Source: Squalus acanthias
Lineage: Eukaryota
DNA: 64,000 bases
Direction of reading: 5' to 3'
Assembly: GCA_030390025.1 (NCBI GenBank)
Contig: CM059451.1
Location: 1,612,001 to 1,676,000 of the forward strand
The translations under genes were made by a program, and so were the position numbers. The notes beneath the pieces were generated by a model, which did no database searches, was not told where the DNA came from, and saw only the letters and a program-made list of their open reading frames with translations. Shown in pieces: positions 1 to 34,749 of this stretch (position 1 is its first letter; each line of letters begins with the position of its first letter).

Positions 1-1019
1 GTGAAGGTGAAGAGGAGAAATTACAGCTGAACCCAATCTGGTCTAATATCCACAACCATACCTTCCACTAGGGGTCATTGGATAGCAATCAAAAGCAGGA
101 ACCCTGGATGACTATTCCACAGCCACCCGCACCCCTCTTTAGCTCATGAGTGCCGAGGCCAATTGTAATGCCCTTACTGCCAACCTGGCTGAGATTAACT
201 AACTCAGCAGAGATTGAGAATCAAACATGGCACCTTCTGGTCTATAGGACAGCGTTGCATGTTCTCCTTAACAATTGAGCCATTAGTGAGCTGTTACATT
301 AGGGCTGACTCATTTCAGTGGGAGTTGATTGCAGTACATGCGTTTTGCCAGCACAGCGGACGTGGTTTGACTTTGCGAGGTTAGCTCCCTGTACTAATGC
401 ACACTGCCTGTGGAAAGGGGAGCTGCACTGCTGGTGAATTTAGTTTTGATGTCACAAGGAAAAGGACTGCTCCGTTTTGGAAGGTGCCGTTGAGGTGTTG
501 ATCCAGGCCATATAGTCAGAGGATTGCCCTCTTCAGAGCAGAGGGACGCCTTCCTATCAGGAACAATGTATGAAATGTGCAATAGCTTTCTGCGCTCAAA
601 ATGGTGCCAAGGCGCAAAATGCGATGCTCTGCGCATCAGGCAAGGAACAGCCCTAATCCTGCAGGGAATTTGGGACCAAGGTATGGACTATGGATGCGAG
701 GGCCAAGTGGAACGAGGCCCTCCCCTGATCTGTCTACGGTATCAAAATGATATCTGGCAGTAATGGTTTTTATAACCCATCCTGTTGGATGTTTTCTCCA
801 AGTGAGTATACTGTGTGTGAAATCCATATTGGTCAAGTTGATTAACTGAAGCAGCTCCCATTGTTGTTTTCAAGAGGCAAAGGAACCAATGGGGAGTACA
901 AGTGAGCCTTGGAAGTCATTCTGCCTGAAGCGAAATGTCCATTTTTATCCTCCCTTTCATGCTGCCATGTTAGTGATGACACATGTAGGGTTAAGTTCTA
1001 AAGTTTCTTTTCTTTGTAG

Positions 1020-1140
1020 GTTCCTCTTTCAGCTCCAAGTGCTCCTGCAATGAGTAACATGCCCTCAGGTCTGCCAAAGGAGCTGAGCGATCTCAGGCTG
1101 GGAACAACATCTCCTTCAGTCACAGGCACATTCACACCAG
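1020..1140 (+). CDS. GRASP55/GORASP2-like gene, internal exon at the start of the Ser/Pro-rich C-terminal region
   Basis: Acceptor tttctttgtag, donor gtactg; 121 nt, phase 0 to 1; VPLSAPSAPAMSNMPSGLPKELSDLRLGTTSPSVTGTFTP(G), similar to recalled GORASP2 VQLSSVNPPSLSPPGTTGIEQSLTGLSISSTPPAVSSVLST(G); joins in frame to the next three exons. Confidence 0.75.
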
Positions 1141-1682
1141 GTACTGGTAGAATTACTTTAATGGTGCATTTACGTCACAACTACTTCAGGAAGTGATTTC
1201 TGCAGTGCCAGCTCTAGGCCCCTGTGCTGCAGAAACCATCCCCTTTTTAAATTACAGGCAGATTTATACAGTACTGGACCATGGGTACAACCACCAACAA
1301 TGATGGTAGGAACATCCTACTCCACCGACACGTGCCCTTTAACCGCTCATGCACTCCCTCCACCACCGGCGGACCTTCACTGCAGTATGTACTAGCTACA
1401 GGATGCACTGGAGCAACTTGCTGAGGCTTCTTCAACAGCACCTCTCAAACCCATGACCTCTACCACCTAGAAGGACAAGGGCAAGGGCAGCAGGAGCATG
1501 GGAACACCACCACCTCCAAGTCACACAGCATCCTGACTTGGGCATATATCTCCATTCTTTCATCATCGCTGGGTAAAAATCCTGGCACTCTTTACTTAAC
1601 AGCACTGCGGGAGCACCTTCACACGGACTGCAGCAGTTCAAGAAGGCTCACTACCACCATCTCAAGGCAACTAGGGATGGGC

Positions 1683-2213
1683 ATAGGAACAGGAGGAGGC
1701 CATTCAGCCCCTCTAGCTTGTTCTGCCATTCGATTAGATTATGCCTGATCTGTATCTTAACTCTATTTACACCCCCCCCCCCGGGTTCCGTAACCCTTAA
1801 TACCCATGCCTAACAAAAATCTATCAAATCTCAGTTTTGAAATTTTCAAGTGACCCCCAGCCTCAGTAGCTTTTTGGGGGAGAGTGTTCCAGATTTCCAC
1901 TACCCTTTGTGTGAAGAAGTGCTTCCTGACATCACCCCTGAACGGCCTGGCTCTAATTTTAAAGTTATGCCCCCTTGTTCTGGACTCCCCCCACCAGAAG
2001 AAATAGTTTCTCTCTCTCTACCCCATCAAATCATTTAATCATCTTTAAGCACCTCAATTAGATCACCTCTTAATCTTCTATACTCAAGGGAAAACAAGCC
2101 TAGTCTAAGCAGCCTGTCCTCCTAATTTAACCCTTTTAGCCCCGGTATTGTTCAGTGAACCTGTGCTGCACCCGCTCCAAGGCCAATATATCCTTCCTGA
2201 GGTGCGGTGCCCA
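1683..2213 (-). mobile_element. CR1 3' fragment
   Basis: CR1 3' stem-loop and C-terminal ORF2 remnants. Confidence 0.85.
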
Positions 2214-5200
2214 GACTCGATTTTATGGCTGCTATTCAAAATGTGTCTCTCAACAAGGTGGATCGTATAACTCATCCCCACACAGCTTCTTTCAAACTCA
2301 GGATGCAACCTACTCCTCTGCCCCCCACAGCATTGGCATCCAATTGGATTGCAACAGATCTGCTAAATCAGTAAATGAATTGGAACTCTCCAAAGACAGC
2401 ACTGGTCAACATTGGCCTGGAAAATCTGGACACATTAGTTGGGAATTGCCCGATTGGCCCAGGTGCTGGTTGTGCCAGCGGTTTTAGAGAGCGGCGCTTG
2501 GACGAACTGGAAGCTTTGCAGTGCTTGATGTGGAGAAGAGCCGAGGAACCCGGAGCAGCAAGAGCTGGAGCAGGCACCTCCAGCAGCAGAACAGACAAGA
2601 GCCCTGGGACCGTGAGCCAGCAGCCACGAGTGCACAGCCAGCCGTTAGTTTGTAGCCGCTGGTTCACAGCCAGCAAGCAGCAGCCGCCAGATCGCAGCCA
2701 GTCTGCCGCAGAACAGGGGAGGGGGGGGGGGGGGGGGCCGGGCCAGTGCGTGCCTCGCGTTACAGGGGCAGCGACACCCGCTTTGGCAGCTGGGGTGGGC
2801 AGGGAGGGGAAGGGGAACTCCCAGACTGGGAGCAGAAGAGACAGTCGTGCTAGTATATTTTGCTTTTAAAGTTTGAGAGTTAATACAGAAGTATTGCAGG
2901 AACAGTAGAAATTGTACAATACTGCCGTGTTAACTCTGTGACCTACTGTACCAGCACTGCTGTCTTCCCCCGCTCCCTATTCTGATGATGAATGCTGGTT
3001 GGGACTTCCCTGACTATCCCGGGTGGTGGTTGCGCATATGTGCTGGATCTATATGTGAGCGACTGCATGTGCGCATACATAGCTGTGACTTTGCCAGAGG
3101 CTGCTGCCTCCTCCACTGGCTGGGGAAGGTCCTGTACTGGGCGCACTTCAGCACTCCACTTGCTGTGGTTTTAAACACAACATGGTTGCCTCTGACAGCA
3201 AGTATTTTTTTTTCTCTCTCAATTTTTGTGCCCATCAAGGTGAGGGATGCTAGTGCTGCAGCATGGAACACTCGTAGGCACTTTTACCTTCCTGTTCGCG
3301 TCCCACAGAAGTAGCTCTCGAAACAGAGACCCATGACCTCTGCTGCCCTTCCAGTTACATTACAGTACTTTTAAGAATGTCTTCATTCTTTTCACTTACA
3401 AGATATGATGGGGTATTAGTTAATATGTGGTGTAGTTATCGTAACCTTCCAGCAGGAAGTTAATGACAAAGCTTCAGGTGACTAATGCTGTTCTAATGCT
3501 TAATTCAGAAAGGTAATATTTCACTTTTACTGAAAATCTTAATCTCAGACACTAACAAAATATCAGTTATATTTCAATGTTAGCGCTGTGATCATTCTTC
3601 AATGCAATCTCATGCAGCTAAGCATTGCATTTGTCAAGGACAGCTGGCGACTATTTCCGAAGTGTATTGATGACACTTGATGAATATTTTTATCATTACC
3701 ATGTCTCCTTTTAAATTAAAACACTGCTTCAGGTTGAGTTTTCCCCGGTTATCTCTCAGACTTTCAATTTTATGTTCTGGGTTGAGAACCGTTTTTAAAA
3801 TGTAATTAATTGCTGCTGGGTCTAAATCCTGGAACTCCCTCCCTAACAGCGCTGTGGGAGTACCTTCACCACACGGACTGCAGCGGTTCAAGAAGGCGGC
3901 TCACCACCACCTTCTCGAGGGCAATTAGGGATGGGCAATAAATGCTGGCCTTGCCAGTGACTCCCACATCCTGTGAATTAATAAATGTTTTAAAAAGCAT
4001 TAAAAAACATTTTTTTTAAATTAAAATGGTCATTCAGCAGCCTGGTAAGTAATTTTCCTGATCTTGGAGAATTTGTCTTGCATGTATTAAAAGATTAAAT
4101 TGTCTTGTTGCAGTTGTTCTCTTTCCCACTTTGCTGCTCCTCCATTCGTCATTCAACCCTATTCCTTTGCTGATGATTCGACTCCACATTGATCAGCTTC
4201 CTCCAGATCGCCCGCCTTTGGTGCTCCAGAATTTCAGTCCTCTTGCATTGCAATGGCTGACTTACTTTAAAAAAAAAAATCTCTTCCTTCAGTAGAGCAG
4301 TCAAAATCTTGTTTCTTTTAATTCCTCGAAAGTCCGCTTCTTAATTCCTCAGTCTGTTTCTTCATGTGTCCAATCAACAGCTCCCACCTCTTACCTTCGA
4401 CTCCATTCAGCGTTCTTTGATTCTGTCTGATCAGATCACAAATGTCATTCCCACATCTGCTCAGTTGTCAAAAGCTGTCTCCAAGAAGCTTGGTTTTCAC
4501 TTTCACACTGCGCACTTCTTTTCAACTTCAACAGCTCTTAATGTTTATAATATAAATCTTGCATCTGCATGCACTCCCTGTCTACTCTTTGCATTAGACT
4601 TTATTAAGAATTTATAATGGAAACTGCCTACATTAACCTTGTCAGGCTGTAATTGCATCCTTCCCTCAACAGTGGAGTCACTGCAGTGCTGCTACTGGCA
4701 GGATTCTGTAATTACAGTGTGACGAGCTTACATAAGCAGTTTCCATGATAAATATGGACATAGCAATTTATCATGGAAATATAAAATGGAAGACAGAATG
4801 TATGACTTAAAAAGGGGACTAGATTACATCTGTGCACCTTGGTCGAATTATCCTCCACATTCCAACCCTGCTTCACCTGGAGGCTACACTTGCTGTTGAC
4901 TTCCCATGTGTAACGCCATGGGGGGATTGACTAGGATTCGGTGTAAAGTCCAAATCCATCCAAGATTTGAACACTCCTTCCACTCTCTGTTGCAGCCATT
5001 TTTGTCCCCTCTCTATTACAGATACTGTCCTGCTTAGCGTTCCTCTGAACTTTCCTCTCTTCTAAGCTCCCAATATATTGTGTTGCATTTTCTTCCTCCT
5101 CTCTATATCTACACTGTTGAGATCATGAGTAGTTTTCCAACAGAATGGAACATTTCAGTGCACCCAGTTTTCTGATATCTGCTGCTGCTTAGTGAGAAAA

Positions 5201-5858
5201 TTGCTCCTCATGACTCATTGCGTAGTACCTTACTCTAATTCCGTCTTTCCCAGGATCTCCAAGCTGTCCAAGTGCTTACCTCTGTCTTTCCTTCCTCCTC
5301 CAATCTATAGGTTTCCTGACTTGCCACATCATCCTCTAGCATTCTTTTCGACCTTGGTGCTATCCTGCATTATGAGCCTTAGTCCTTGACCTAGTACCTT
5401 CTCAATTAAAAAAAAAACCATGCAGGCACATAGAACCAGCTCTGTGCATTTAGTGAGCCATACAGAAGGCACCTAATGTTACTGCAGCTCGCAAGATTTG
5501 TGAAAATGTGGGTCAGCAGTGCTGCCACTCTGCAGCAGTTTAGTCCTTTTTATATTTGAGTGGCACTTATGATGTGAGAATTGCACTTCTGTTTATCGCA
5601 CTCTTAAATGCCAAATGTCTGCATCTATCCCGTGCTGTACCTGCTCAATGTTGAGTAAAACTCCTTTACTTGAGGCAGTTTGGCACTATGGCCATGTGTT
5701 CATTGAGACTGCCCAAATTCATTTCATGGAGGAGTCTTGCAGGCAATAGAGATTTTCATTGCAGCAGTCTGGGCTGAATTTGAGCACTTGCCCCAGAGGC
5801 CTAAGCTAGCGTGGAACCCACTGCACCACCTAGTCCCTGGGCAACAAAGGCCTTTATC

Positions 5859-6386
5859 CGCAAATCCATTGGCAGGATAGGCGCACCAACGTCTGTGTTC
5901 TTGCTCAGGCCAACATCCCCAGCATCGAAGCTTTGACCACGCTCGATCAGCTCCGATGGACGGGTCACATTGTCCGCATGCCCGATACGAGACTCCCAAA
6001 ACAAGTGCTCTACTCGGCGCTCCGGCACAGCAAGAGAGCCCCAGGTGGACAGAGGAAACGCTTCAAGGACACCCTCAAAGCCTCCTTGAAAAAGTGTAAC
6101 ATCCCCACCGACACCTGGGAATCCCTGGCCCAAGACCGCACAAAGTGGAGGAGAAGCATCCGGGAAGGCGCCAAACACCTCGAGTCTCTTCGCCGGGAGC
6201 AAGCGGAAGCCAAGCGCAAGGAGCGCACGTCAACCCAAGCACCCCACCCACCTGCTCCTTCAACCACCGTCTGCCCCACCTGTGACAGACTGTAGGTCCC
6301 ACATTGGACTCATCAGTCACCTGAGAACTCATTTTTAGTGTGGAAGCAAGTCATCCTCGGTTCCGAGGGACTGCCTAAGAAGAAGA
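5859..6386 (+). mobile_element. 5'-truncated RTE-clade LINE with 46-bp TSD
   Basis: QLRWTGHIVRMPDTRLPKQVLY...GGQRKRFKDTLK, C-terminal zinc-finger remnant, (AAG)n tail; direct repeat 5813-5858 / 6387-6432. Confidence 0.93.
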
Positions 6387-8280
6387 GGAACCCACTGCAC
6401 CACCTAGTCCCTGGACAACAAAGGCCTTTATCTTCCTATTGGTCGCACAGGCCAGTAATACCTTCTAGTTGTTTCTCTACCTATGGCACTGGTAGTGCTA
6501 CTTTGCCTCTGGTAGCTCCAGGATTGCCATCAAAGTAAATTCAAAACTACACATTTGTTCATCTCCCAATTTTACTTGGTGAATGGCCCTGTGACTCATT
6601 ACTCAAGTTGCTTCAGTTCTAGTACTGGCAGGAGTTGGGTCTTGTCGGGTTTGTGGACACCAGGTTCTCAGCTGCTACTGACTGCTTCAGCCACTGCTGC
6701 AGTTTTGTGACTGGAATGGGCAATATTTGGCAATCGAAACTTTTAACAAAAAGGAACGGTGGGCTTCAATTAAATCACTTTAAAAAAAAAAAGTATTCTG
6801 GCAAATGGAAATTGAATCATAGTTTGCTTTGGCTTCCATGTCTCATTAAAATAAGGGTCTTGGGGCATCCCAGTGACTATAGAAAAAGGCCAGGCTGTGT
6901 CCCATCAGTTGCTTCATTTTGATATTGCTGCTGTTACAAGGGCAATCTGCAAGTCTTCAAGATGCAAGAACACTCTCAAAGATGCCTTCCTCCTGAAATT
7001 ACAATTGTGGTTGTTCTTTCTTGGGTGATGCGGGATATTGACGACTGTTTCCACTAGTGTCCCTTTCAAAAATGGTTTCAAAGAATCATAACTTAATATC
7101 CATTTTGTATACTTTATGTAGATTTATATGGACTGGGGTCATTTTTAATTGCCCAGCTCTTATCTCTATGCTAACACTCTCGATTATACAGTTGCCTTTC
7201 TTATCGGACTGCTTATCTGACATCAAGTCCGATTGGCTTCCACCAGAATTCAGTACACTTGCTCAACACTGAGCTGAGTCTCAAATCCCATATCCTATCC
7301 ATTATTAAGACCACATATCTCCACCTCTGTACAATTGCCTGTCATCGCCCGTACCTCTTCCCTCGCTGCCACCGAAACCCGTATCTATGCTTTCATTGCC
7401 TCACGACTTAAACTTTTCCAAGGCCTTGATCTCCACACATTTCAACTCCTCCAAGCCTGCATTGTCCCACAGTAAATCTTGCTCGCCCATCTCCTCTGCT
7501 CTTGGTGAACTCCATTGGCTCCCTGCCTTGCAATGGGTTAATTCAAAATCCTTTGTCCCCATTTACAAATTCCTCCATGGCCTCACCCTACTCTATCTCT
7601 GCAGCCTTCTCCAGTGCCGTGTCCCAGTTTGTGCGCCATGGTCCTCTTGCTCTAGCCTCCTGTGCAGTCCTTCTGGTGCTCTTCACTCAGTAGCTCGGCT
7701 TTCAGCTGTCTGTCTTCTGCCTGGAATTCGCTTCCCAAGCCTCTTTGCCTTGCTATCTACCTCTCAGCCTTTGACTGCCTCCTGTCTCTTCGACCACACC
7801 TCTAGCCAGCTCTCCTAAATCTTGTACTGCTGCTTGGGAAGTTTTATGATGTTACAAGGTGCCATACAAATGCAAGTTGTTGATACAGCTCACAGGACTG
7901 GCTCAGAGGATTTACTGGTGTGACTGAGAAAGCTGAATTACCCTGCACCAACTCTTATTTACTGATGTTCTTGTGTTTTGCCTAATTTTTTCCATCCTGT
8001 GTCTGTCACCATTATTTGCTGTTCAAAACAAAAATCAGTCGGTATAATGGCAGAGAGCAAGGGTAGTTTGACTTCTCACTTTCTTTGCTAGGAAATAGTA
8101 TGGAGCACAGGTGGAAAGTTTTAAAAAAAACTTCAGTGTCAAATCCAAAGGGGAGGAATGAAATAATGAAAAATGGTTTTATTTGTACTGTGCAGAGATG
8201 AATCTATGAAATACTGTAATATTATATGTCTGCTTTTTCAAGGTGCTTTTCAGTAAATTCTAATGCTTTCTTGTTTTCAG

Positions 8281-8370
8281 GTTCTGTGGGTGTTCCATTG
8301 TTCCCTTCCCCTTTGAACGAACCCTTCACTGTGTCATTAGCCAATGCGGCCATCACCAGTACTGTGCCAG
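8281..8370 (+). CDS. GRASP55/GORASP2-like gene, internal exon
   Basis: Acceptor ttcttgttttcag, donor gtatgc; 90 nt, phase 1-1; GSVGVPLFPSPLNEPFTVSLANAAITSTVP(G) vs recalled GORASP2 GVPTVPLLPPQVNQSLTSVPPMNPATTLP(G). Confidence 0.78.
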
Positions 8371-9394
8371 GTATGCCCAGGACAATGGTTCATGTAGGCT
8401 TTGAATAGATTTTGTAGTGCAGCTACTCCCTCCATGTGAATAATACATTGGTGTTTATTAGTTATACAGTATATTCTGTACATGCTCCAGTAAACTGCGT
8501 TTTTTTAATATAAAAATAAAATAACTTGGTTTGACACCTTTTGCTGGTGGTTGATCGCCCAGTCAGTTGTCAGCCACTTGCCTTAAACCTTCGTCCTTCC
8601 CACACGGGGGGGCTCTTTCTGTAGATCCCCCAAATGTTACTGCATCAAAGGAAGTCCCCTGCCCCTCAAGTTAACATCACATCTGTCTGTCTTGCTTTTC
8701 TTGCCCTTTCTTGAAGGGGCTCACTCCTGCTGATGAGATACAGGGGGTAGAAATGCACCCTGGGAGGTAGCGCAAACCAGGCGCTATCGAATTGGCAGCC
8801 CGTTTTACATGCCGCTCTCTTTTTTTCCTTTTCCATGGATTTTTTTTTTAAGCCCCCATAAAAAAGTATTACATAGCAATCACAATACAGCAACAGGCTA
8901 TTTGGCTCAACCAATCCGTGTTGCTGTTTATCTTCTACATGAGCAGTGATCCTAATCCCGTGTGTCCACCCTGTTCCCATATCACTTTATTTCCCTTTCT
9001 TCTTTCAACCTCCTATCTAACCTATTCTTAAATGTTGACACAGTCTCTGCCTCAATCACTAACTCTGGTGTATAATATATTTTTTATATATTATAATTTA
9101 TATTCCTCCGGTGCCCCCTCTCTCTGCCCCTCTTTCCTCTTGTCCTGTTACTTTGGCTTACACATGGACCATGATAATTTGCTGCTCTCCTCCCCTTCTG
9201 TAATCTTTTCCAGTCTTTCCAGAATGTCCCTGGCCGTAGCCTCTGGGAGGCAACAAAGTATCTGGGACTCTGAACTGCAGAAGATAGTGTCCAGCCCTCT
9301 ATTGAGTCTCCTATTACTAGTGCATTCCTAACCGAATCGCAAATCTCTTTCCCGCTTCCCCCCCCCCCCCCTCCCCAACCCACCTTGAGCCATC

Positions 9395-9572
9395 TCCTGT
9401 TTTTTGTACAATAGCAAAATACTGCGGATGCTGGAAATCTGAAATAACAACAGAAAATGCTGGAAACACTCAGCAGGCCAGGCAGCATCCGTGGAGAGAG
9501 AAACAGAGTTAACGTTTCAGGTCTGGGACCCTTCTTCAGAACTAGTCAGAACAGAAGGGTCTCCGACCTGAA
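9395..9572 (-). mobile_element. Penelope-like terminus with an intact hammerhead motif (9507-9543)
   Basis: Minus strand aguu-CUGAAGA-agggucccagaccu-GAAA-cg-UU-aacu; same terminus as the GIY-YIG-bearing copies at 49150 and 62450. Confidence 0.8.
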
Positions 9573-10613
9573 CCCACGGGAAACCAATACCTCAAACTTG
9601 TTATAAAAGATAGTTTTATCTGGGTATTCCTGCTCCAGCCTGACCCTCATCACTTTCCTTGACCTGTGGATGGTCACCACTCCTTCCTGGACCACTGCCA
9701 CCTCCCTATCCCTGTGGGATGACTACCCACTGAAACTCTTGCTTTTGAAACCTCTCTTCCCTCCCTGATGTGTTGGATTGCCTCCGAATCTATATCAAGT
9801 TCTGAGGTCTTAAGTCAAGTAATCACACTTGGACAATCGAGTTAACATCTGCCACTCAAAATCCCGCGTCCTGCAGGAGCCGCACACCACTGTCCCAGCC
9901 TGTGCTGCGATTCCTACTATAAATGTATAAAAAGTATGTTTGTTGTGTATTTCTACTTAAATTTCAATCAACTGCTCTGCTCCTCCTTCTCCCTTGAGCC
10001 GAATTCCCATTATGTGGTTTCTCAGGCAGTGGTGGACCTCTGATGATCGGACCAATATTGCAAGATTGCGCTCCAACACGGAGCCGCGCAGGACGTGAGA
10101 ACGGGTTGGAGAGTTGGGTGCGGAGCTCTATGCACCCAATTCTCTGCACCCTGGATCTTGCAATGACAACGTTTGCAGTTTTTGGAAGCCGAGCTGCCAT
10201 CCAGCACGAGCCTTAGTTCGCCTTCAACTACCATGCAAATATGCCTGTAGTACTTGGGTGTGTGTGCAATTTTTATTTAAAAAAAAAATCATTTCTTCTG
10301 TGCTACTTTTTACTCCCATGGAAGTAGCCGGGTTGCGGATAGGTTCTCCGTAAACTTCTTGAATGGTGACTGGGCGGCAGCCGTGTTGTTGTGGTGCTGC
10401 CATGGTTTTTTCTTTGGTCTCCCTCCTGTTGGTAAAACCGCTCCACATGATTATGCGGGAGGTTTCACCAGTAGGAGGGTGAAGCTGCCTTCCAGTGTGG
10501 CCATGTGGCGTGACTGGACTGCAAATCTGTTGGAATCGTCACTGTTGAGTCCAGGTTGTGCAAATGTCGCACATTTAAGCCTTTCCCTCTGCCAACTGTT
10601 TTTTCTTCTTTAG

Positions 10614-10739
10614 GTCTGATAACGGCACCACCTGTGTTTACCAACCTACCGAATTTTCCAAACTTAAATGTGGCTTTTCCCAACCTTGCTGTGGGGACAC
10701 TACCAGGATTAGGAGGGAATCCCATTGCCACGTCCACAG
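10614..10739 (+). CDS. GRASP55/GORASP2-like gene, penultimate coding exon
   Basis: Acceptor ttttcttctttag, donor gtaaat; 126 nt, phase 1-1; GLITAPPVFTNLPNFPNLNVAFPNLAVGTLPGLGGNPIATST(G) vs recalled GORASP2 GLMPLPAGLPNLPNLNLNLP. Confidence 0.8.
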
Positions 10740-11329
10740 GTAAATATGTATTTGTGTATTGCTGTGTGTTTTGTGATTTTTGGAGGGGTGGGGGGAATAT
10801 TTTATTTTAGAGCCATTGGTGTCTCGAGTCCAGCCCAGTCAGAGCGGATTACTTCATCCCTTTCCTGCGGTGACCACCCATCAAAATTTTGAACCGACCA
10901 TTCTGGTTTTGGGGGGGTGGCTGCCCAGTAATTGTGATATTTAAAAAGTGTACTGGCAAAAAAAAATAAAAAATCTGGTTTTCTGACACTATTGTTCTAT
11001 AAGGATGTAGTGTTGTTGCAAATTGGTCTGCTTGCAGCATGTGCAAACGTGAAACGAGTGTGTACGAGTCGACCATTTTGCTCATGCTTAATTGGCCTAC
11101 CCATCATTCCATATTAAGAGTGATCAAACCACTTGCACATTCCCTTTTAATTGGACTGGTCACCTGTTGTTGACTGCATTTTGTGATGTAGAATTTTTGC
11201 TGGTCATTGGGGCTGACAGAGGTAAAAGTTGGATTAGGGAGAGAGAGTTTTATTTTATAAAGTTGCCTTTTACTTTTTTTAAATTGGGGTTCTTCAATGT
11301 ATTTCTAAGTTTGGTAGGGAGAAGATAGA

Positions 11330-11720
11330 AGGCTGACCTAATAGGTCTTTAAGATTATGAAAGGGCTCGATAGGGTAGACATAGAGAAGATGTTTCCACT
11401 TGTGGGGGAGACCAGAACTAGGGGCCATCAATATAAGATAGTCACTAATAAATCCAATGGGAATTCAGGAGAAACTTCTTTACCCAGAGAGTGGTGAGAA
11501 TGTGGAACTCGCTACTACAGGGAGTGGTTGAGGCGAATAGCACAGATGCATTTAAGGGGGAAGCTGGATAAACACATGAGGGAGAAAGGAATAGAAGGAT
11601 ATGTTGATGGGGTGAGATGAAGAGGGGTGGGAGGAGGCTCGTGTGGAGCATAAACACCGGCATAGACCAGTTAGGCCGAATGGCCTGTTTCTGTGCTGTA
11701 GACTTTGTCATTCTCTATGT
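11330..11720 (+). mobile_element. CR1 3' fragment
   Basis: DLI.VFKIMKGLDRVD...RRNFFTQRVVRMWNSL remnant and CR1 tail. Confidence 0.85.
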
Positions 11721-12169
11721 AAACTTAGTGAGCGATTCCAAGTGTGGACCAGCTTTGTTTCTAGTCTTGGATGCTGTTCAGCAGACATTCAAATCTAAAA
11801 TCTTTAGTACTGGCAGAATGTACTCCCATGGTGGTTGGCGTCTCTGCCCTGGATTGATGTGATGACTGCCCAAAACCTGAATGAGTGAATAAAACGTAGC
11901 TGCTTCATTTGTGGCTGATACAGCAGTGCGAGGTCAACCATGGAGGCTTACTTAATATTGGGAGATAGGAGAGGAGTGCTAATACTGTCATTGATGGAGT
12001 TCAGGTGAGATCCACAAGTTACTTGCATTTTGCTCTTCTGGTTTATGTTGTTAGCTGAGTATACTGATTTTTATAACTTCTGTTCCCTCAGCTGGCTAGC
12101 ACTTGCTCATTGTATTAATAACACTGTTGAAGTTGGAATAGTTTCTTGTACTTTCATTTAAGGAAAATC

Positions 12170-12465
12170 TTAAATGGACTCACCCAAGTCCAGATTGATG
12201 GCATGAAAGTCTCCTCTGACTATAAGGGTCCTACATGAAATGGAGTTTGATTAGTCTAAATCCAGTTACTAATGAGCAAGATCCCATAGTACAAAACAAA
12301 AGCTAATTTGGCACAAAATTGGGAACTTTTTCAGAGGGGCCACAAGGTGACTGCTGTGGGGAAATGTCACACTGGTACAGTATGGGGAGCTTATTCTGAG
12401 GCTATGTTTGAGCATAGTGCAGCGGGAGCTTTACTCTGCATCTAACAGTGCTATACTTGAGCTGT
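12170..12465 (+). mobile_element. LF-SINE-like ancient SINE
   Basis: ggtcctacatgaaatggagtttg...tccagttactaatg...ttggcacaaaattgg resembles the recalled LF-SINE core; second copy at about 54410-54710(-). Confidence 0.6.
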
Positions 12466-14711
12466 TCAACCCCTGGCCTGTGGGCCAAATGTGGTCCGCT
12501 TCTCAATTTCAACTGGCCTAGGAAACGGCCCATGATTTAAAACCAAATCTCTCCAAATAACCTGCTGAAAGAGCTAATCTGGCGGCGGGGATTGAAACCC
12601 ACAGATAACTCTGCCAGCTCTCTCGGCGGAAGTGCAGCAGGCTTTCATTCATCTTCCATTCCCAGCAGCGCTGCCTTTCCCTCCTCCAATTGGGACCTGC
12701 ATTCCTTTTGTATTGCTGAGGCAGGTACAAATGGAGGGGGAGAGCAGGGAAGGGGGAATCAAAAGCCTGCTGCATTCTTGCCGAGAGGTGATGGTGTTGC
12801 CTGTCGCTTTCACTCCCCACCAGCTGATCAGCTGTTTTGGCCATTCTGGAAATGTCCCAGCTCTAAGATTATGATGAACACAAACATTCACACAAATGTT
12901 CCTGAGAACGCGCTCACAAAATTGATGTACACTTGATTGCCTCCCAGTTTGCGATGCAAGAAATAGTTTAAACCTACCAGCAATTAATGCCTTTTATTCT
13001 ACAAAAGGTCTTCTATTGTACTGAGCTAGTTGTGACTATTATATTCATCCTATTGAAAGAGTCCTGAATATCGAGTCAAAGCACTCTCCTAGCTGCAGCA
13101 CTGATTAAAAATGAATATTTTGTGCTCTCAGCAGGCATTACTTTATTCACTTTTTTCCTCGAGATGCAGTTGCACTTTGAGCACATCTTCTAAATCAGCT
13201 CTGAAAGACTACGTGCTGCTGGCTGTTAATGCACCTTTTTGAATAATGCTTGTCAGTTTGGATTTATGATGTGATATCTCTCTCCTAGAGGCAATAATCC
13301 TGCCGTCACAGCACAGAATTCACTTTGACCTTGAACTTGCGTTATGGTACGATGGGTACAAGAGCTTAATAATATATTGGCCTGAAATTCCCCTCCCTGC
13401 GATTTTAGCATGGCTGTTGTGATCGATTCAGGGCGTCTCCTGATTACCTTTACTCGTATTCACAGGAAATTGCGGGTTCTATAGGCATTCTCTTCTGAGC
13501 CGTAGCATGTCTTGGGTAACTGCACTCGTGTACCAGAAGTTGTATAGGATGCCCAATCCTGCTTTCTCGCGGCAAATGTCAGACCATATGGTTCAGGCTG
13601 AAACAGCAAATTCAATTTATTGCGAGAATGAAAGACCAAACCAAAATAAACAGTCATGCAGGCCTGGATTTGCACCTTTTTAGTTTAAACTGTTTCTGAA
13701 ATCAAAATGAGTGTTCAAATTCTGGAAGTCCTTTCAACAGAGTCTTTTTGATGATTCTTTATTCTGTCCTGCTCCCTTTCATAAGCTACTGTCATCGTCC
13801 TGTCCTTGCGAGCTACTGTCCCGTCCTCAATTTTCCTTTCCTCTCAACTCCTTGAATGTGTTGCTTCCCAAATCCGTGCCTGTCTCTCCTGCAGCTCTGT
13901 TTGAATCTCTCCTATCAGGTTTATCCCCCCACCACCGCACCAAGACTGCCCTAACCAAAGTCACAAACGACATTCTCAGTGACTCACCGCAGTGTATTGT
14001 CCATCCTTGCCCAAGGCTGCGGCGAGGTCCAGGTCGACCACCCTCTATCCTCCTCCAATGACTCTGCTCCATTGCTCAGCTCAGTGAGATTGTCTTCACT
14101 TGGTTCCAGCCTTGCCTATCCAATCACAGCCAGACCATCTTCAGTAATGGTCCCCCTTCCCTCCCTCGCTTTAGGTCTCCCCTCCTAACATCTCCTTCCT
14201 TGGCTGTGCCCGTTATTTGATTAACCCTCTGTGAAGTGCTTTGGGACATTTTTCTATGTTAAAGGTGCTATAATCAGTGCATGCAGTAGGAACTTCAGTC
14301 AGTGTTTTGTGCATTTGGCAGTACTTCCCCCAAACAAAGGCAAGAAGATTCTTTGCAGGATACAGCCAACAGAATGAAATTTTATATTTTCCCTAGCCAA
14401 AAAAATGTAAAAAGACTTGATCCAGAAGTATTAAGAGTGGAGCACAAACACCGGTATGGACTGGTTGGGCCGAATGGCCTGTTTCTCTGCTGTATATTCA
14501 ATGTAAATATTACAGCCTCCAGTCTGTGACAGAAGGGGTTAAATCCCCATGAAATGGTTAATTCCTATGCTAAAATAGCAGAAGAATTTCAGATGTGCTA
14601 GTTGTGGAGCAAACTACATCTTCCACTGCTCCATGTTGGATGACCATTCTCTGTATTTAGGCTTTAGCCTTAATTCTGTTCTGATTTTTAACTTGGACTC
14701 TTCCTTTCCAG

Positions 14712-14923
14712 GTTCACACTTGTCGACCACCAGTCCAGTGTCACATCTGGCCTTCTCCAACCTCCCTCCTGCTGATCCTGCCACGACTCCTGTGCTTCCG
14801 GCCTTCTCCTCAGTGCCACCGTTTTGCCCCAACCCCTCGACTACAACCGAAAGCATTACAGCACCTTTTCACTCTCAGTGGAGTAAAGTCTCGGACCCTG
14901 CGCCTGCCGTAGCCCAGGAATAG
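14712..14923 (+). CDS. GRASP55/GORASP2-like gene, terminal coding exon
   Basis: Acceptor tcttcctttccag, phase 1; GSHLSTTSPVSHLAFSNLPPADPATTPVLPAFSSVPPFCPNPSTTTESITAPFHSQWSKVSDPAPAVAQE then TAG at 14921-14923; followed by a repeat-poor, AT-rich UTR-like stretch. Confidence 0.72.
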
Positions 14924-17650
14924 TCTCCTGCCAGCAGCTGAGACAAAAAGCTGTCTTCCGCACTTGTTTTGATGAAACTGGCACAAGGGTATGATCTACT
15001 CAGACAGCACTAATAAACTACTGAGGGATGCTTACCCTAACACACGAATAATACTGCCAAGATTCTAACTGAGTAGAAACAGACCTACTTTACTAAAAAA
15101 AAGGCTTCCCAATTTAGCAATATGTATGTAGATGTCAGTCTGACTCTTTAGCAGCATGACAATCATTTAAAAAAAATTAATTCCAGATAAACTAGCAGAA
15201 TTCTAAGCTGAACGTAGGATTCCAGTATATCGAATTCCTTCCCATTCATCCCATTGTGGAAACACACACACATCTGCACAAGTCGACTCCTCCCATTCAT
15301 GTTTTCACTACCTAGCGCACACCCAACATTTTCACTAGCACAGCTCGATCATTTTTAGCATGTTACGGTTTCTTATATTAAAAAAAAAAGTATTTTGTAT
15401 AAGTGTTTTAACTTCATTATAGTGACCACTCCAGCATCGTTTGCTGGAGCATGGGACTGAGAGCTGATTAAAGTTTGAGGCGTAGCAGTTTCCGAAAGCA
15501 TTTTTCAAAATAAAACTGTGCATTAATTCCCACTGTTTTGTCAAGTTGAATAGTTTGTTTTAATCTACCTAGTATAGATTCAGTTGCAGCATGAATGACT
15601 AAAGATGCTGACATACAAGTTTTCCTTTTTTGTCTCGTCAGTCCATTGGAACTCCTGGTCCAAGCGTAGCCTTGAACTGTTGTCATTAACATATTTTAAC
15701 CAATAGGTTATTGTGTTTATCAGTATTCAGCAGTAATCAAAAATGCCAGTGTTGCAGAATGCCGTTAACCGTCTTACTTATCCTGGGAATATACTGTTGC
15801 AATACTGTATGTAGCTTGCTTACGATTTATTGTTGAGCCATTTGCTGGTGGCTTATGACCATTATCATGACTGTGATTTTTCCAGTACTGGACACTAAGC
15901 GCATTAAGTTGAAGATACCGGAGTAATTAAGATGCGTGGAGAGGGGAGACTGGGGTGAAATTCCTCCGGTCACCGAAAGGGATTTCCCATTTTTCTGCTC
16001 ATGTTGACTTTTCAGTGAAATGTCACCCCAAAAGTTGATCACTAATCCAGTCTCTTGGTTAGGTAAGACCTTGTATGGTTTATTAATGGTATTCCAATAT
16101 TTTTTACTTTTTTTAAAGAAACTTCTACTTAACTACTGTGCTATTTATACAAGCTTGTTAATTTGTGGCCAAATATTGTGATATTATCAAGGTATCTTTA
16201 ATTAAGCTCCAAATGCATTCCCGATAATGATTGATAAATTAGATTGCCAGAAAGTTAGTATCACAACAGAAAAGCAAGCCAACAGTTTGCTTTCACATTC
16301 TCTGGGCTTCCACATGTTTATAGACCAGTATTCTGTGATATCGGGGCCTTGTATCTGCAGAGGATCTGGTCTGATACTACATGAGCATTCTGCCAGCTTC
16401 CTCCTTGCTTTGTCTTTCACTGTGATGATGGTGAAGGCTAATCACGGGGTTCGGGTTGACGTGGTTCAAAGGTCAATTCCAATCTAATGGCAAACTCTGA
16501 GTCACAATGCTTTTTTTAAAAAAAATCCAAGATCTGATGCATTCCTTTTTGTGATCTTCCTGCCTTTGGGCTGAGCCCTGCTGATTTAGAAATCTTTGTT
16601 TCACACACTAATTGTGAATGAAGGAAGCCATTCGGCCCATCGTAACTCGTCCATCCAGAAAGACCCTATAGTCGATCCTTCATTTGTGAAAGTGGGAAGA
16701 AAATACTTGTTTGAATTATTGGCTGCTTCTAGTTGAGAGAAAATTGGCAGAGTTTTTTTTCCAAAATGCTTAAAAAAAAAAAAAAATTCCTCCCCTCCTT
16801 CCCCCCCAGTCCTCTGCACATATATAATGAGTTCATTGTGCAGCCTCAACACTAACTATAGCATGTGAATTAAAAAACTTGCAATATGCCTGTTATAGCT
16901 GCGTTAAAGGTTTACTGTACCTTGTAAAGTAATAACACTATAGAGGATAGTAGAGGCTACTTCCTTGCGTCCCAATTCGTTTACCATAGTGTATGCAAGT
17001 GGATTATATGCATTTTTTTAATATGGGGGTTGGTCTGGCTGGGCCTTTTTGCATATAATGGACTCTATTGTCTGAGAGTACTGAGAGGGACCAGGTGTCT
17101 TGTAGAACTGGAATGATTCTCTTCACTTGAGTGGCAGAAAGGGTGCGTTGTAGCTGAACCTTTTCTTCATCCTTAAATTTGACAAAGATACTGGACCAAT
17201 TTTTATTTAAAAGCTGTACGAGCTATACAGTATTAAAGCCCTTTGTGTCATTACTTGTGTAAAATGAGATGATAGCTGATCCTAAGCATCCTGGTGTCAT
17301 TGTTGAGCAGGAGCTGTGTCTGTTTCTGTATCTGCCCGACGGTGTGCCATTGTGACTGGCATCGACCTGGGTTATTATGGACGTCGCACTCCAGCCCAAT
17401 TTGGCTCCAAGTTACTGACTGCAATAACTAGTAATGTACAGTATAGGTTTTAAAAGGCTAGTGTATTTTTGTCGGCACTCAGACTGTAGTTCAATAGCAC
17501 AGAAATTCAATGACCTTTTATACATCTTAATGTCCTGTAATTTTTTAAAAAAAACCAAGTTTAATGTTTACTGTGAAATTTCACTTTGCTGTAAATGTAC
17601 AGTCATTTGCTTTGGACCCATCAATAAAGATGGCAGTTGATGTCTCATGG
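14924..17650 (+). other. Probable 3' UTR of the GRASP-like gene with alternative polyadenylation signals
   Basis: About 2.7 kb largely free of recognisable repeats; AATAAA at 15012-15017, 15509-15514 and 17623-17628, the last followed by a GU-rich tract (tgttgcgtttgttttctg). Confidence 0.55.
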
Positions 17651-18175
17651 TGTTGCGTTTGTTTTCTGTAATGAAGGCTTTCTTCAGGCATCCTGCATAT
17701 TGTACACTACGGATGAGCCAACTCGAAGCTTATTAAGGAGGGGTTGTACACCTAAAAATGACATGTTTCACTTCAGTTCCCTCAGCTAGTGAAGGGTTAT
17801 AATCTGAGCTTCCAACTTGAGAGCGCGCCTTGGGCAGCAAGCCCTCCCTAAGTTTTTGATCCCAACTTGTGATCGTAACTCTACTGAATGCAAATTGAAT
17901 TTACAACCATCATTAATCTAAAACTATTGTCATTGCAAAATGGTTATTACCCGAACCCTGGTCTGGATTAAGCGAGTTGGTGATCTCCAGCAAAGTTCAC
18001 TAGTTCTAAGAGACTCCGATCAAAAACTCCAGAAAGTTGGTCTCTGTCTGGGACCTGAGGATTTTGTGCAGATGTGGAATGTTCCTAACTCTCTGTCTAT
18101 ATCTTCGCTCTCTTACTATTTTGATCAAACCAATCAATTATCTGTAACTAAATAAAACTTTAAAGGAAACTTAAC

Positions 18176-26116: not shown

Positions 26117-26775
26117 GGGCTGGATTTTGCCAGCCCTGGGGAGGCGGGCCTGTTAACAGGCAGATAAGAGGATTATCCCCATTTTGCCCACACAAGTGCG
26201 GGCTTCCCGAAGGCTCCGAAACCCGCCAGGGTCACCGAGGCGAGCAGTGGGTCTGCGGGGTACAAAAGTGCGCTGTGAAGGTAAGTGATGGGTGCAAGTG
26301 TGGAGAGGTGAGTATGTGAGGTGAGTGGAAAGTGTTAGAAAAAGTTTACTTACCTTTGTTTCTTCCTGCAGGCTTCAATCGGTGGGTATGCGGAGAGTCT
26401 CGGACCTCCGCGGTAGAGATGACAGATGGCTGCTGCATTCTCCGATGCAACAACCATCTCATTGCTGCTAAAGAAAGAGGTTTGATGAGGTCTTGAATTC
26501 AAGAACTCATCAAACTACAGAGAATGTCAGTGTTTGACAGCTTCACAGAGCTGTCAAACGATGACAATTCATCTGTCAAAATTTTTTGACAGATGAAACG
26601 TCATACGTTGACGTTCTCTGTAACCGGCTTTCCCTTAATTGGCCTGCTAAGCCTGCTGGGTGCGCTCAATCAAGGGAAAATAGCGTGGGTTGGCCAGAAG
26701 TTGATGGAGGCGGGACTGAAACCCGACAAGTGGGAGTCCCGCCTCCAAAAGCTCCCCATTGACAAAATCCAGCCC
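26117..26775. mobile_element. PIF/Harbinger-type non-autonomous DNA transposon
   Basis: TIR gggctggattttg / caaaatccagccc; flanks cac and cat. Confidence 0.75.
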
Positions 26776-29700
26776 CATGGCTTTATTAAAGAAAAAATAG
26801 CATTCGGGGGTTCCTCCAGTGACTATGGCTGTATAAGTGAGCATGTATAGACGTTGGGTGAGAGTGCAGTTGGGTTACTCTCCTTGGTTGAATAGCCCAC
26901 ACACTCATTGTCCCGGCTCACATACAAAGAATGAACACTTGGGTCAGATAGCAGAGGCCTTTCAGCACCCGTGGAACTGCACGCACCCCAGCACAAAGCA
27001 GCATTTTCAGAAGAGGTCGTGAGGTCTACATTCACCGGTGATAGAAACTGTAGGTTTCAGTCTCCTGTCACCGACACCTATTGACTGACCAGCAACACCC
27101 TTTATATATTTTTAATGAATCTGGCAGGCTGTCCAATCTGCACATCTCATGGATGTTTTCTAGGCACAGAAACTCTGGAACTCTTCCAAAAAGGGCAAGA
27201 AATCTTGAAGCTTGCTCTCAAATGGCAACAAATTAAATTACACATTCCACACATAACATGTACTGCATAAGGTACAAGGGAGTAAGCACCCTGATCTCAG
27301 GTGCTCAGATATGAACCGTGAACTGGTCACATCTGAACCCTTTGACTAGGTTTCCAACCGTGTAACTCACTTATTATTCAACATATAAAACACCCATCGG
27401 ACTTCACCTTGAAGAGGAGAAGGGCTGCATCTCAGACCACCACTTAGAATGACTGCAGGAGCAAGCCTCAGAACGTAAGCCAGCATGCTCCCAAGGGTTA
27501 ACAGCAACATCAAATAATGGAGGCAACTGGACCAATTCAGATTTGGAGAGTACTTTAGAGCATATTCCTAACTGAGCATCTAAACATTAAATACAGGGTC
27601 ACCACAGCGTTCAAAGGTAGTTTCAAACCATTTGTTTCTTGCAATGACATCGTCTTCAGTCAAGACAAGGTGGTACGTTTTTGCCCACTTACCACCTTTA
27701 CCTGGATACCGTGATAGTGCTGATTCAATTTTGTTGCCTTGGCCAGGAACGAGAACCAATTAGTTGCAGCAACACGGCCTAGGTGCAGTGAATTCTGCAT
27801 GCCTGGTTGGTGCGGGGAAGAAGAAGTCATTCGAGTGAACCAGCTTGAGGTGCATGTTTGCAGACGCAATGTAGAATAGCACAGGGGCTTGAAAGTGGCA
27901 AAGAAGCTCGTTGGCCATTTTCCCGACTTCTAGTGCAAGGAGGTGGGCTAGAGGCAGACCATGAAGTGAGGAGGGTGCAGAACGGAGCACAAATGCAAAT
28001 TTCAAACACAAAGAAAAGATACAGCGAAATTAGAAACGTTTACAAATTCTAACCAGAGAAGATCCAAAAATTGAAAATGGTCTTCTTCATATACAAAGCT
28101 TAGACCACGAAGAGAGTCGATTGGTACTTGTGTAACATTGATAAAGACAATCAACCACTTCACACAGGCAAATACTGGATATGATTGCACATCTTCACTG
28201 GCAATTTGAATGTGTCCCACTTCAGGCAAGCAGCTCAGTTCTTTTTCCACTCTTGACGTGGTTTGGCAGCTTCCTCAAAATGTTGACCTCACGCTTGGAT
28301 CTTTTACCAACCGTACCTTTGGCAACATTTTGCTTTCGCCGCAGTTACTCCAAACCAACACAGCAGTCTCTATTTTAAAAAAGCCGGGCATGTTTTGACG
28401 TGTATTTTGAGTAAGGATTGACCTCGGAGTTGCCCGACTGCTTTCTCACTCTCCAGTGGAAGAGAGCGACAGGGCTTATTTTGAGTGCTCAGTCACCAAT
28501 CCCAAAAGTCAAAAGCGTTGGGCAATCTGTGAAAATATAAAACTGGGCACAAGTCTTACTGACATGGTGGTATCAGAAGAGCTTTGGGATGCTACTGCAG
28601 ATTGATGAAGCAAGGATATTCTGGAGCTTTTGTCCTGACCTCCAGATGTTTCAACAGTAGATACAGAACTTCAGTACTACCAACTGTTTAATGATGGTGC
28701 AACAGTGGTGATTCCAGCTTAATTTAAGTGGCAAGGCACAGGGATGTGTGGAAGATGAATGCGATGGAAGATAACAATAGCATTTTGAAGCAATAAAGTT
28801 GCTTTTTGGTGTCTTCGTGATTCGATTAAGTGAATCATAGACATTTCAGGGATAATGCTTAACATAGAGAATGCAGGTGATTCTGCCCTCTGAGTGAATT
28901 GAAATCTCTTCAGGGCCGGCAGAATGTGGCTGGATTGTATTTAGAAATCTCAAATGAATGACTTTACCTCTGTCGAGGAACCCTATCGATTGGCTCTTTG
29001 ATCAAACAGTTGGTCTTACTGGGGTTAGGTATCCCACCGTAAGGGGACATTTATAGTGATTTGGCAGGACTGAGGAGTCATGACCTACATGCAAGCCAAT
29101 ATGAAAACTTGTACCCAGAAGGTATGATTGATACGAAGCCCATGACAGCACAATGCCTTTGACCTTCCGTGATTCCGAGTCTATTATTACGCTTGACTCG
29201 TGTCCTAGTGCACATTTTTGGTGGCCAAAAACACACAATTGATACAATCTGCCAATGCTCGCCAAACCTTAACCGACTTGTTCTGAGAATTAGTTCATGG
29301 ACTAAGAACTAATAATGGGGACCTGAGCCACGGTGTGTATGCTCCTGAACCTAAGTTCCTTTAAGCAAAAAAAAACAACAAAGCAGCTTTTTTTTATAGG
29401 TTGCTCTCATCCAGCTTGTCTTGGCTCCTATGCTTGTCCGCTGACGTGTGACCGTGGCCACCACTCTTGGTCGAGTTTCCATCTCTGGCGTTCTGTTTGG
29501 AGTAATGAAGCAGGACAGAGTTAGACAGAACCTTAGAGCAACAGCATCAGCATTTCCTTCTAAATAACTGCTGGTATCCCCTTTTAACTCTCCAGCTCCA
29601 CTGCTGCCTCTCGGCAGCAACCTATCTCTCTCAGCTGGACAACTTGGCGGTGTGCACTGCAGAACTCTCTCCAGGCATCATCGGCCGCTGTTCCACGATC

Positions 29701-30183: not shown

Positions 30184-30428
30184 CTTCCCCTGACTTTGTG
30201 GCTGATTAGATTCCAGGATGGCACTGCCAGTCCTGCGGGGGGGCAGAAACAGTGCTGGCAGTGACGTGTTGTAGGCCTTCATGGAGGGAAACTGGTTCCT
30301 GTCCATGGACGCAGAAGAGTGGGGCCTCATGCCAGCTGAGATGGACAGTGCTGTCCTGGCGTCACGCGGTCTGCCCAAGCTGTTGGATTTGTTTTCCCTC
30401 CGCTGATACTCAATAGGAGATTGAAGAG
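30184..30428 (-). CDS. ARHGEF25: ARHGEF25 post-PH exon (ALQSPIEY extension, Galpha-q-binding in p63RhoGEF)
   Basis: 245 nt, phase 1 to 0; ALQSPIEYQRRENKSNSLGRPRDARTALSISAGMRPHSSASMDRNQFPSMKAYNTSLPALFLPP...QGK; matches recalled ARHGEF25 LQSPIEYQRRESQTNSLGRPR; donor gtaagc. Confidence 0.88.
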
Positions 30429-33400: not shown

Positions 33401-34448
33401 CCGATCCCCTCATTCTCTATTGTTCTCTGATTCAGGTTTAAGTTTGACCGAATCCATGGCTATATCGATTGGCTGGGCGTCACTGTGAGGGGCGTCACCT
33501 GCTCCCAGCTGGTCTATCTCTTTACATTCTTCCTCCTTATCCTTATCGCGATCTCCCTCCCTCTTCGGCTCGCACCTTACAGCTGTGTCATATTGGATGC
33601 CGATCTTTGCCCTTCTCCTTCTCTTAGGGTACAGTTTCACAGGAGCCAGGCACTCACTGGTATCTCGAGCCTATCCACTGAGGGGGTAACACTTCCATGC
33701 TCAGCACTCCCGGTGTGTGAAGACAACAACAGACGTAAGTGTCGGCCTCTTGGAGACGACACACATCCTCTGCCCTCACCCAACTTCAGACCTGAGACTC
33801 TCGCTGCTTTTCCCTTTTTTCTGATGTAAGGACAATGAAGACAATTTGTAGTACTCCTATCATCACTCTACCGAGTCCCAATGTGCTTCACAGCCAATGA
33901 AGTACTTTTGAAGTGTAGTCACTGTTGTAATGTGGGAAACGCGGCAGCCAATTTGTGCACAGCAAGCTCCCACAAACAGCAATGTGAAAATGACCAGATC
34001 ATCTGCTTCAGTGATGTTGATTGAGGGATAAATATTGGCCAGGACACCGGGGAGAACTCCCCTGCTCTTCTTTGAATAGTGCCATGGGATCTTTTATGTC
34101 CACCTGAGAGGGCAGACAGGGCCTTGGCTTAATGTCTCATCTAAAAGATGGTCAGTAGGAGGACCGAGAACCGGCCATGGTGGAGTCCCCTTGTGATCTC
34201 TCCACGGTGGCAACAGAAATCGGGTAAGTGCCCACGTTTGGAGCTGTAGGTGAGAGCCCAGGTCAACAGCACAGACACTCAAAAAACGTTGCACTCCTTG
34301 GAACTGTTTCATTTCAACAAAGGATATTCGTGCTAAGATGCTTCTTTTTAATTATGAGAAGTCGCACAACACCAGGTTATAGTCCAACAGCTTTATTTGA
34401 AATCACAAGCTCTCGGAGCGCTGCTCCTTCGTCAGGTGAAGTGGTCGT

Positions 34449-34744: not shown

Positions 34745-34749
34745 CAGAC

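Follow-up and report, generated by a model that had tools for sequence, protein, structure and literature searches.

The stretch of Squalus acanthias DNA described here (64,000 nt; contig CM059451.1, positions 1,612,001 to 1,676,000; hereafter the window) carries on its plus strand the 3' part of a gene of the GRASP (Golgi reassembly-stacking protein) family, which is almost certainly a paralog distinct from both GORASP1 and GORASP2. The Ser/Pro-rich tail that its exons encode appears to belong to a third GRASP, whose gene is present beside GORASP1 and GORASP2 in sharks, rays and chimaeras, and G3 is used below as a working name for this ortholog group, including the window gene. G3 is most likely a genome-duplication copy situated on a HoxC-type chromosome: it would have arisen in the vertebrate genome duplications, would now lie on the elasmobranch X, and would have been lost early in the bony vertebrates. 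The features assigned to the gene are as follows.

Nt 1020–1140, plus strand: first tail exon in the window (121 nt, phase 0/1, 40 codons plus 1 nt; AG/GT borders, open frame)
Nt 8281–8370, plus strand: in-frame cassette exon (90 nt, phase 1/1; splice sites and frame, junction contigs)
Nt 10614–10739, plus strand: exon with a Pro-Asn-Leu repeat (126 nt, phase 1/1; splice sites and frame, junction contigs)
Nt 14712–14923, plus strand: last coding exon, with a paralog-specific C-terminus and a conserved Trp motif (212 nt, phase 1/stop TAG)
Nt 14924–17632, plus strand: 3' untranslated region (UTR), about 2.7 kb long, with an AATAAA (nt 17623) close to its end (contig ends of public runs)

All four coding exons have AG acceptors and the first three have GT donors, and their splicing gives one stop-free frame of 182 residues, with stops in both other frames. 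Contigs of public runs (four runs, three studies) were mapped to nt 900–17800; the RNA nature of these runs is presumed, none of those listed as matching the G3 junctions being on record as RNA. The first junction is bridged at GT..AG in all four runs, the second in two and the third in three, and a single 3993-nt contig (run X4) spans all four exons and the 3' UTR. Contigs end at nt 17632 (X4), 17645 (X3) and 17702 (X1). The X4 contig also carries about 741 further nt upstream of the exon at nt 1020, beyond the window, which fits the 226 codons (678 nt) that precede the window exons in the 408-residue isoform of G3; none of the contigs shown has a loose end at this exon. The plain reading of the bridging contigs is that the exons are real and are joined as a spliced transcript. 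The four phase-compatible GRASP-tail exons proposed in a sequence-only reading of the window are thereby confirmed, as is the resemblance of their sizes and motifs to diverged C-terminal exons of GORASP2, since the G3 tail aligns with that of GORASP2 exon by exon. The cassette exon is skipped in ortholog isoforms P0001, P0003 and P0004, and the alignment shows the same gap in GORASP2 isoforms P0018 and P0100. The Pro-Asn-Leu repeat is likewise common to GORASP2 (tblastn with the Heptranchias protein, 53% over 43 aa, E 5e-05). Among lamniform proteins, P0002 and P0284 differ from P0285 and P0287 by an isoform with 9 extra residues directly before the first window exon. There is no acceptor 27 nt upstream of nt 1020, so this variant would stem from the donor of the upstream exon; the chimaera keeps a GORASP2-like motif at the site.

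The last exon alone retrieves 7 proteins among 118 candidates, all of them chondrichthyan, annotated as 'Golgi reassembly-stacking protein 2-like' and assigned to Pfam PF04495. Altogether 33 G3 proteins were collected from 17 named species of sharks, rays, skates and the chimaera Callorhinchus milii, mostly labelled 'GORASP2-like' by NCBI. The window peptide is identical to the sawshark protein P0290 at 172 of 182 residues and to the basking shark protein P0002 at 167, compared with 52–59 for two shark GORASP2 proteins, 35–53 for nine bony-vertebrate GORASP2 rows and 21–28 for three GORASP1 rows, a likeness to the G3 orthologs that, as sequence, is far beyond chance. These orthologs (75–95% identical over the window peptide) carry a full N-terminal tandem-PDZ GRASP domain (PF04495), so that the family call, made at first from a low-complexity tail, was borne out, in orthologs rather than in the upstream exons of Squalus. 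Compared with known structures, protein P0002 gives E 5e-110 for GRASP55 and 5e-93 for GRASP65, and a search of the ESM Atlas with it returned GRASP clusters only. In the model of P0290, two PDZ domains are followed by a disordered tail, and a structure search with this model returns GRASP55 and GRASP65 first. Its tail of 204 residues contains 50 Ser and Thr and 35 Pro, and the predicted local distance difference test (pLDDT) score is mostly below 50 from residue 206. The Gly2 column, a myristoylation site by sequence, is Gly in all nine G3 rows. The two C. milii models, P0013 and P0291 (XP_007908127.1, XP_007908126.1), are named 'Golgi reassembly-stacking protein 2' by NCBI although they represent the third paralog, and have 21 additional residues ahead of the Gly2-type start.

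G3 and a true GORASP2 are both present in six sharks (Heptranchias, Cetorhinus, Heterodontus, Scyliorhinus, Pristiophorus and also Carcharodon). In five same-species pairs the two are 75.5–77.5% identical over 204 domain columns, which equals the depth between shark GORASP2 and gar GORASP1 (77.0% for Heptranchias); the same Heptranchias domain is 91% identical to pig GORASP2. For C. milii, the supplement of Barlow et al. 2018 (PMC5840792) lists three GRASPs: GRASP65 (XP_007906430.1), GRASP55 (XP_007888153.1) and 'GRASP' (XP_007908127.1). The last is the G3 ortholog P0013, and in Figs S4 and S5B of that supplement, going by the text labels rather than the branches, it stands outside both labelled clades; the words 'milii' and 'shark' do not occur in the main text as available. 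Tables for the little skate (PMC10115646) give Gorasp1, Gorasp2-1 on Leri_7C and Gorasp2-2 on Leri_40C. As Leri_40C ends at 8,084,570, exactly the length of the record with the skate G3 ortholog P0292, skate Gorasp2-2 is G3. Three GRASPs thus coexist in a holocephalan and in an elasmobranch. The separate GORASP1 and GORASP2 loci expected by the sequence-only reading were found in skate and chimaera, and GORASP2 in the six sharks, all of them species other than Squalus. In SI Table 5 of the skate study, a comparison of fin regions gives Gorasp1 a log2 fold change of +3.05 and Gorasp2-2 one of -1.41 (base means 10462 and 1232), values that show the third paralog to be expressed in the embryonic fin (PMC10115646).

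The notion that G3 is simply the sole GORASP2 or GORASP1 of sharks, diverged and mislabelled, has next to no probability: the chimaera ortholog does bear the NCBI name of GORASP2, and a GORASP1 profile (profiles mixed with GORASP2 having been dropped after a local trial) found no named chondrichthyan protein, nor any row branching like one, in the best 120 of 2491 hits, but a separate, conserved GORASP2 accompanies G3 in six sharks, chimaera and skate each hold all three genes, and G3 has Tyr164 and not the Met or Leu of GRASP65.

The second part of the argument concerns the chromosome. GORASP1 is presumably linked to HoxA and GORASP2 to HoxD. TRIO is likewise found with HoxA and KALRN with HoxD, and HoxC and HoxD are a pair from the two rounds (2R) of genome duplication (PMC12198301, PMC10972751); with this pairing a sister relationship of G3 and GORASP2 would be expected, and the domain tree described below shows one. 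Lee et al. (10.1101/2025.02.26.637739) infer skate chr40 to be the X and give a list of 29 X-conserved genes. Yamaguchi et al. (PMC10620051) report that the X of sharks corresponds by homology to human chromosome 12 and carries HoxC, genes that the skate itself lacks. Skate G3 lies on chr40 and Gorasp2-1 on chr7, and from these reports we infer that the G3 chromosome of skate is homologous to the HoxC-bearing shark X. The predicted HoxC-type linkage is in this way supported, for skate and not for Squalus itself. Of the records that carry G3, that of the bamboo shark is 16,392,401 long and that of the white shark 28,814,942, values that coincide with the two limits of the X size range quoted by Lee et al. 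(16.4–28.8 Mb). We take Krt8-3, Nr4a2-2, Gli3-2, Rheb-2 and Prim1, or their paralogs, to be human 12q13 genes. They form a block of skate gene numbers with Arhgef25 and Gorasp2-2 (tables of PMC10115646), which suggests that skate Arhgef25 and Gorasp2-2 share one chromosome. The searched supplements on shark sex chromosomes held no GRASP or ARHGEF25 entry. Dosage compensation is described as incomplete (PMC12318234), and the expression of G3 should for that reason be female-biased, if the gene is X-linked.

Phylogenies were built from two alignments. In the domain tree (51 rows, 204 columns), the G3 sequences form one clade (support 100/100), in which the chimaera branches first. The stem of this clade measures 0.18 changes per site, and its sister is GORASP2 (87/81). 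A longer alignment of the domain and proximal tail (37 rows, 326 columns, with GORASP1 truncated early and the outgroups represented by the domain) again gives one G3 clade (100/100, chimaera basal), and here shark and bony GORASP2 group together without G3 (98/94). G3 is therefore outside the GORASP2 clade in both trees. On the longer alignment, the union of G3 with shark GORASP2 is rejected (approximately unbiased test, p-AU 0.029), its union with the percomorph 'GORASP2-like' proteins is borderline (0.050), and its union with all GORASP2 is not rejected (0.38). The trees speak for an origin of G3 before the split of sharks and bony fishes, without proving it. Of the earlier proposal of a genome-duplication paralog, the separate identity and, for skate, the chromosome have held; the age of the duplication is supported by the longer alignment and not by the domain alone.

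Several points weigh against a genome-duplication origin on the HoxC-type chromosome. On the domain alone none of three competing placements is rejected, namely G3 with shark GORASP2 (p-AU 0.20), with the percomorph 'GORASP2-like' proteins (0.37) or with GORASP1 (0.29), and the longer alignment was chosen after these results. It leaves the sister order of G3, GORASP1 and GORASP2 undecided, and the long G3 stem can be pulled toward the root. The trees contain no chondrichthyan GORASP1, no cyclostome and no named chordate outgroup, most outgroups being invertebrate-like proteins. The horn shark G3 record (37.8 Mb) is outside the quoted X range, as are the skate records (8.1 and 8.7 Mb), and a fragment of Table 3 of the skate paper pairs LER7 with LER27, not LER40, in its 2-alpha/2-beta columns (PMC10115646). 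An adjacency of Arhgef25 and Gorasp2-2 in skate, read from the gene numbers LE08535 and LE08538, was dropped because the Hoxd numbers are scattered over hundreds and the numbers are thus non-positional.

Among the proteins collected, G3 was seen in chondrichthyans only. In a search with P0001, 13 G3 proteins scored 582–859 bits and the next hit 407 (best 120 of 2918 hits), and a second protein search covered the best 150 of 2462 hits. Neither set of best hits included a bony-vertebrate ortholog; the genomes of gar, bichir, coelacanth and lungfish were not searched. At 20 G3-specific residues, defined on part of the same sequence set, G3 proteins match at 15–20 and each of 403 other fetched GRASPs at five or fewer. 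G3 is on this comparison likely absent from the bony vertebrates. The proposal of retention in cartilaginous fishes with loss elsewhere thus stands as to the retention, in 17 species, and as to the loss depends on these best-hit listings. Given the limited reach of the searches, G3 might be ancient and yet kept by some bony fishes, whether as an unsampled gene of gar, bichir, coelacanth or lungfish or as the percomorph 'GORASP2-like' gene, whose union with G3 is not rejected on the domain and is borderline with the tail. This is unlikely in view of the bit-score gap and the scarcity of G3 residues outside the group. The percomorph clade was set aside as a teleost G3, since with the tail included it nests in teleost GORASP2 (99/97). 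Its members (P0021, P0100, P0138, P0164, P0316) represent a second, fast-evolving percomorph gorasp2 with partly shortened tails, which probably derives from the teleost genome duplication.

Restriction to chondrichthyans would also be expected if G3 had never existed in bony vertebrates, having arisen by duplication of GORASP2 on the chondrichthyan stem, moved to another chromosome and evolved rapidly for a short time. The match of tail and cassette exons to GORASP2, and the GORASP2 motif that the chimaera keeps just upstream of the window exons, agree with this, and the domain alone does not reject it. It is nevertheless quite unlikely: the corresponding tree is rejected once the proximal tail is added, shark GORASP2 is much closer to pig GORASP2 (91%) than to the G3 of its own species (76–77%), and the move would have to have been to exactly the paralogous chromosome.

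It is improbable, too, that G3 is the 2R sister of GORASP1 or the relic of an older local duplication. The best tree from the longer alignment does place G3 outside GORASP1 plus GORASP2, with weak support (76/62), the domain test does not reject G3 with GORASP1, and the position of the chimaera copy in the supplement of Barlow et al. is comparable. Opposed to this, where GORASP1 and GORASP2 differ in the domain, G3 has the residue of GORASP2 at 12 sites and that of GORASP1 at one, although 11 of the 12 are ancestral states and so carry little weight for sisterhood, and its tail aligns with that of GORASP2 and not with that of GORASP1.

To judge from its residues, G3 is probably a Golgi tether of the GRASP55 type in which the surfaces that meet the partners are altered. 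All nine G3 rows keep Gly2, the zinc pair His18/Cys103, Leu20, the loop Gly94–Cys103, Tyr164, Arg174, Ser189, Tyr196 and Tyr198, residues tied in the literature to membrane anchoring, Golgin-45 binding and trans-tethering. The protein would be anchored by a Gly2 myristate, like GRASP55, and would dock on the C-terminus of a golgin through PDZ1 and the PDZ1–PDZ2 cleft, with the PDZ2 Tyr198 projection tethering Golgi membranes in trans and kinases that act on the disordered tail switching the tethering off. Tyr164, Leu20, Val98 and Ile100, which make a GRASP55-type pocket, are present in all nine rows; they are also the pre-duplication states and so bear on mode of action, not on orthology. The contacts listed for GRASP55 with Golgin-45 are kept in G3 except at position 37, which is Phe in all G3, GORASP2 and GORASP1 rows and not the listed Ile.

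Around this pocket the domain has changed. Thirty-three positions are fixed differently in G3 and GORASP2, 23 of them in PDZ1 and five in residues 140–144. The changed sites include 52–54 and 61 at a predicted helix (54–61), Tyr29/Trp30, and 140–144 in the cleft, and the otherwise invariant Lys60 is replaced by Leu, Val or Ile. An excess in PDZ1 is not specific to G3, as GORASP1 and GORASP2 also differ at 28 of 106 against 19 of 98 positions, compared with 35 against 14 for G3 and GORASP2. The G3 domain is 98% identical between sawshark and skate. The core pocket would accordingly be of the GRASP55 (Golgin-45) type, with surrounding surfaces that changed early and then froze. From this order of change and stasis a shift in the range of partners may be suspected, the case for it being about evenly balanced; in the broader sense that either partner preference or place in the Golgi differs, G3 is probably distinct.

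The tail differs as well. At 204 residues, compared with 247–248 in shark GORASP2, it is about 44 residues shorter than in the GORASP2 of the same species, in keeping with the shorter Ser/Pro-rich tail proposed in the sequence-only reading. At the Thr222 column, Ser-Pro remains in most G3 rows. The main elasmobranch isoform lacks Thr225-Pro and the acidic-Gly-Phe motif that follows, both of which the chimaera keeps. Where GRASP55 has the mTORC1 site Thr264, five of six G3 rows have Thr, not before Pro, whereas all four shark GORASP2 rows (P0014, P0024, P0034 and P0065) have Ala or Val; in the window this Thr is the codon at nt 1107–1109, in the exon at nt 1020–1140. Control of the Thr264 type by mTORC1 may thus differ in sharks or sit on G3. 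The C-terminal end of GRASP55, with Ser441, is replaced by a Trp-containing motif that is conserved from chimaera to rays, and it is plausible that G3 is regulated differently from GRASP55.

In comparison with known proteins, G3 is nearest to GORASP2/GRASP55 (PDB 3rle, 4kfw, 5h3j; shark P0014, P0034), with which it shares Gly2, the tandem PDZ fold, Tyr164, Ser189, Tyr198 and homologous tail exons including the skippable one, and from which it differs in a domain of 76–77% identity, the shorter tail, its own Trp C-terminus and, in skate, its chromosome. With GORASP1/GRASP65 (PDB 4rey, 4kfv) it shares the GRASP domain (68% identical to gar GORASP1) and Ile142 and Leu143, the residues that GRASP65 has at two of its listed contact positions for GM130. 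Unlike that protein, it lacks His20, Ala98, Val100 and Met/Leu164 in all nine rows (chimaera GRASP65 has Leu164), its tail is non-acidic (8 Asp plus Glu, compared with 33 in gar) and the GORASP1 tail motif is missing.

Literature searches, with most subscription papers outside their scope, found no description of a third GRASP and no use of the name 'GORASP3'. The same gene has appeared as skate 'Gorasp2-2' (PMC10115646), as C. milii 'GRASP' (PMC5840792) and as 'GORASP2-like' in NCBI, and the passages of those two papers that mention it give no treatment of a third paralog, of its range or of a link to the HoxC chromosome. G3 is therefore already in databases and in one supplementary tree of 2018, apparently unrecognised as a third GRASP. 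The evolutionary pattern has precedents in the 19 ohnologs kept in chondrichthyans and lost in bony fishes, wnt6b and cspg5 being among the retained ohnologs named (PMC10115646); its supplement, in the searchable portion, has five 'gorasp' entries, which are expression and chromatin-loop rows and do not belong to an ohnolog list. Such retention is well known, and the function of G3 is a prediction; both limit the surprise. The Golgi literature counts two GRASPs in vertebrates and ties the Golgi ribbon to that pair. As a naturally occurring variant, G3 could help to trace the choice between GM130 and Golgin-45 to particular PDZ1 and cleft residues, and to identify the tail sites that control mitotic disassembly and unconventional secretion. 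There is in addition an annotation to be corrected, since the chimaera gene named GORASP2 in NCBI could be taken for the genuine ortholog when trees are built or ancestral sequences reconstructed. A wider scenario is tentative and, taken as a whole, rather doubtful: the gnathostome ancestor might have run its Golgi with three GRASPs, the third having gained a new partner or compartment through its remodelled PDZ1 surface, cleft and C-terminal motif. It would then have stayed nearly unchanged in sharks and rays, X-linked and with a dose that differs between the sexes, and the ribbon with two GRASPs and two golgins would be a bony-vertebrate simplification.

The neighbouring gene lies in the remainder of the window.

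Nt 29394–54900, minus strand: 3' part of an ARHGEF25-like gene, eight exons, convergent with G3 (splice sites, open frame, PDB matches, PH domain)
Nt 54811–54900, 54114–54206, 50816–50866, 47845–47922, 41755–41946, 34913–35093, 30184–30428 and 29394–29531, minus strand: exons of this gene, the last of them inferred

Joined together, these exons encode 355 residues of a DH-PH protein of the Trio-C type, and the frame ends 14.5 kb beyond the G3 stop. Exon scores are split, with three best on ARHGEF25 and three on TRIO (PDB), one of the three having no TRIO counterpart in PDB. The stop falls about 125 residues after the PH domain (last exon inferred), and no SH3, Ig or kinase domain was found, there being no Pfam hit in 81 minus-strand frames of at least 40 aa between nt 17650 and 29400, although shorter exons could escape. 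The ESM Atlas returned nothing for the tail exon of this exchange factor (GEF). ARHGEF25 proteins end shortly behind a single DH-PH unit, and the early stop and missing kinase half are the grounds for calling the neighbour ARHGEF25-like. The convergent minus-strand DH-PH gene of the sequence-only reading is therefore real, while its name is less certain than was implied there, and only ARHGEF25-like is retained.

Downstream of its inferred stop exon, an AG/GT-flanked stretch (nt 26353–26465, minus strand) is possibly an alternative 3' exon, and a minus-strand AATAAA lies at about nt 23366. Two of the introns contain apparent repeats. Open frames of 528, 320 and 317 codons (nt 42990–46868, minus strand) are probably a LINE (long interspersed nuclear element) retrotransposon, and a tandem array of units of about 39 nt (nt 34370–34810), recognised by eye, lies within an apparent split repeat of the SINE (short interspersed nuclear element) type.

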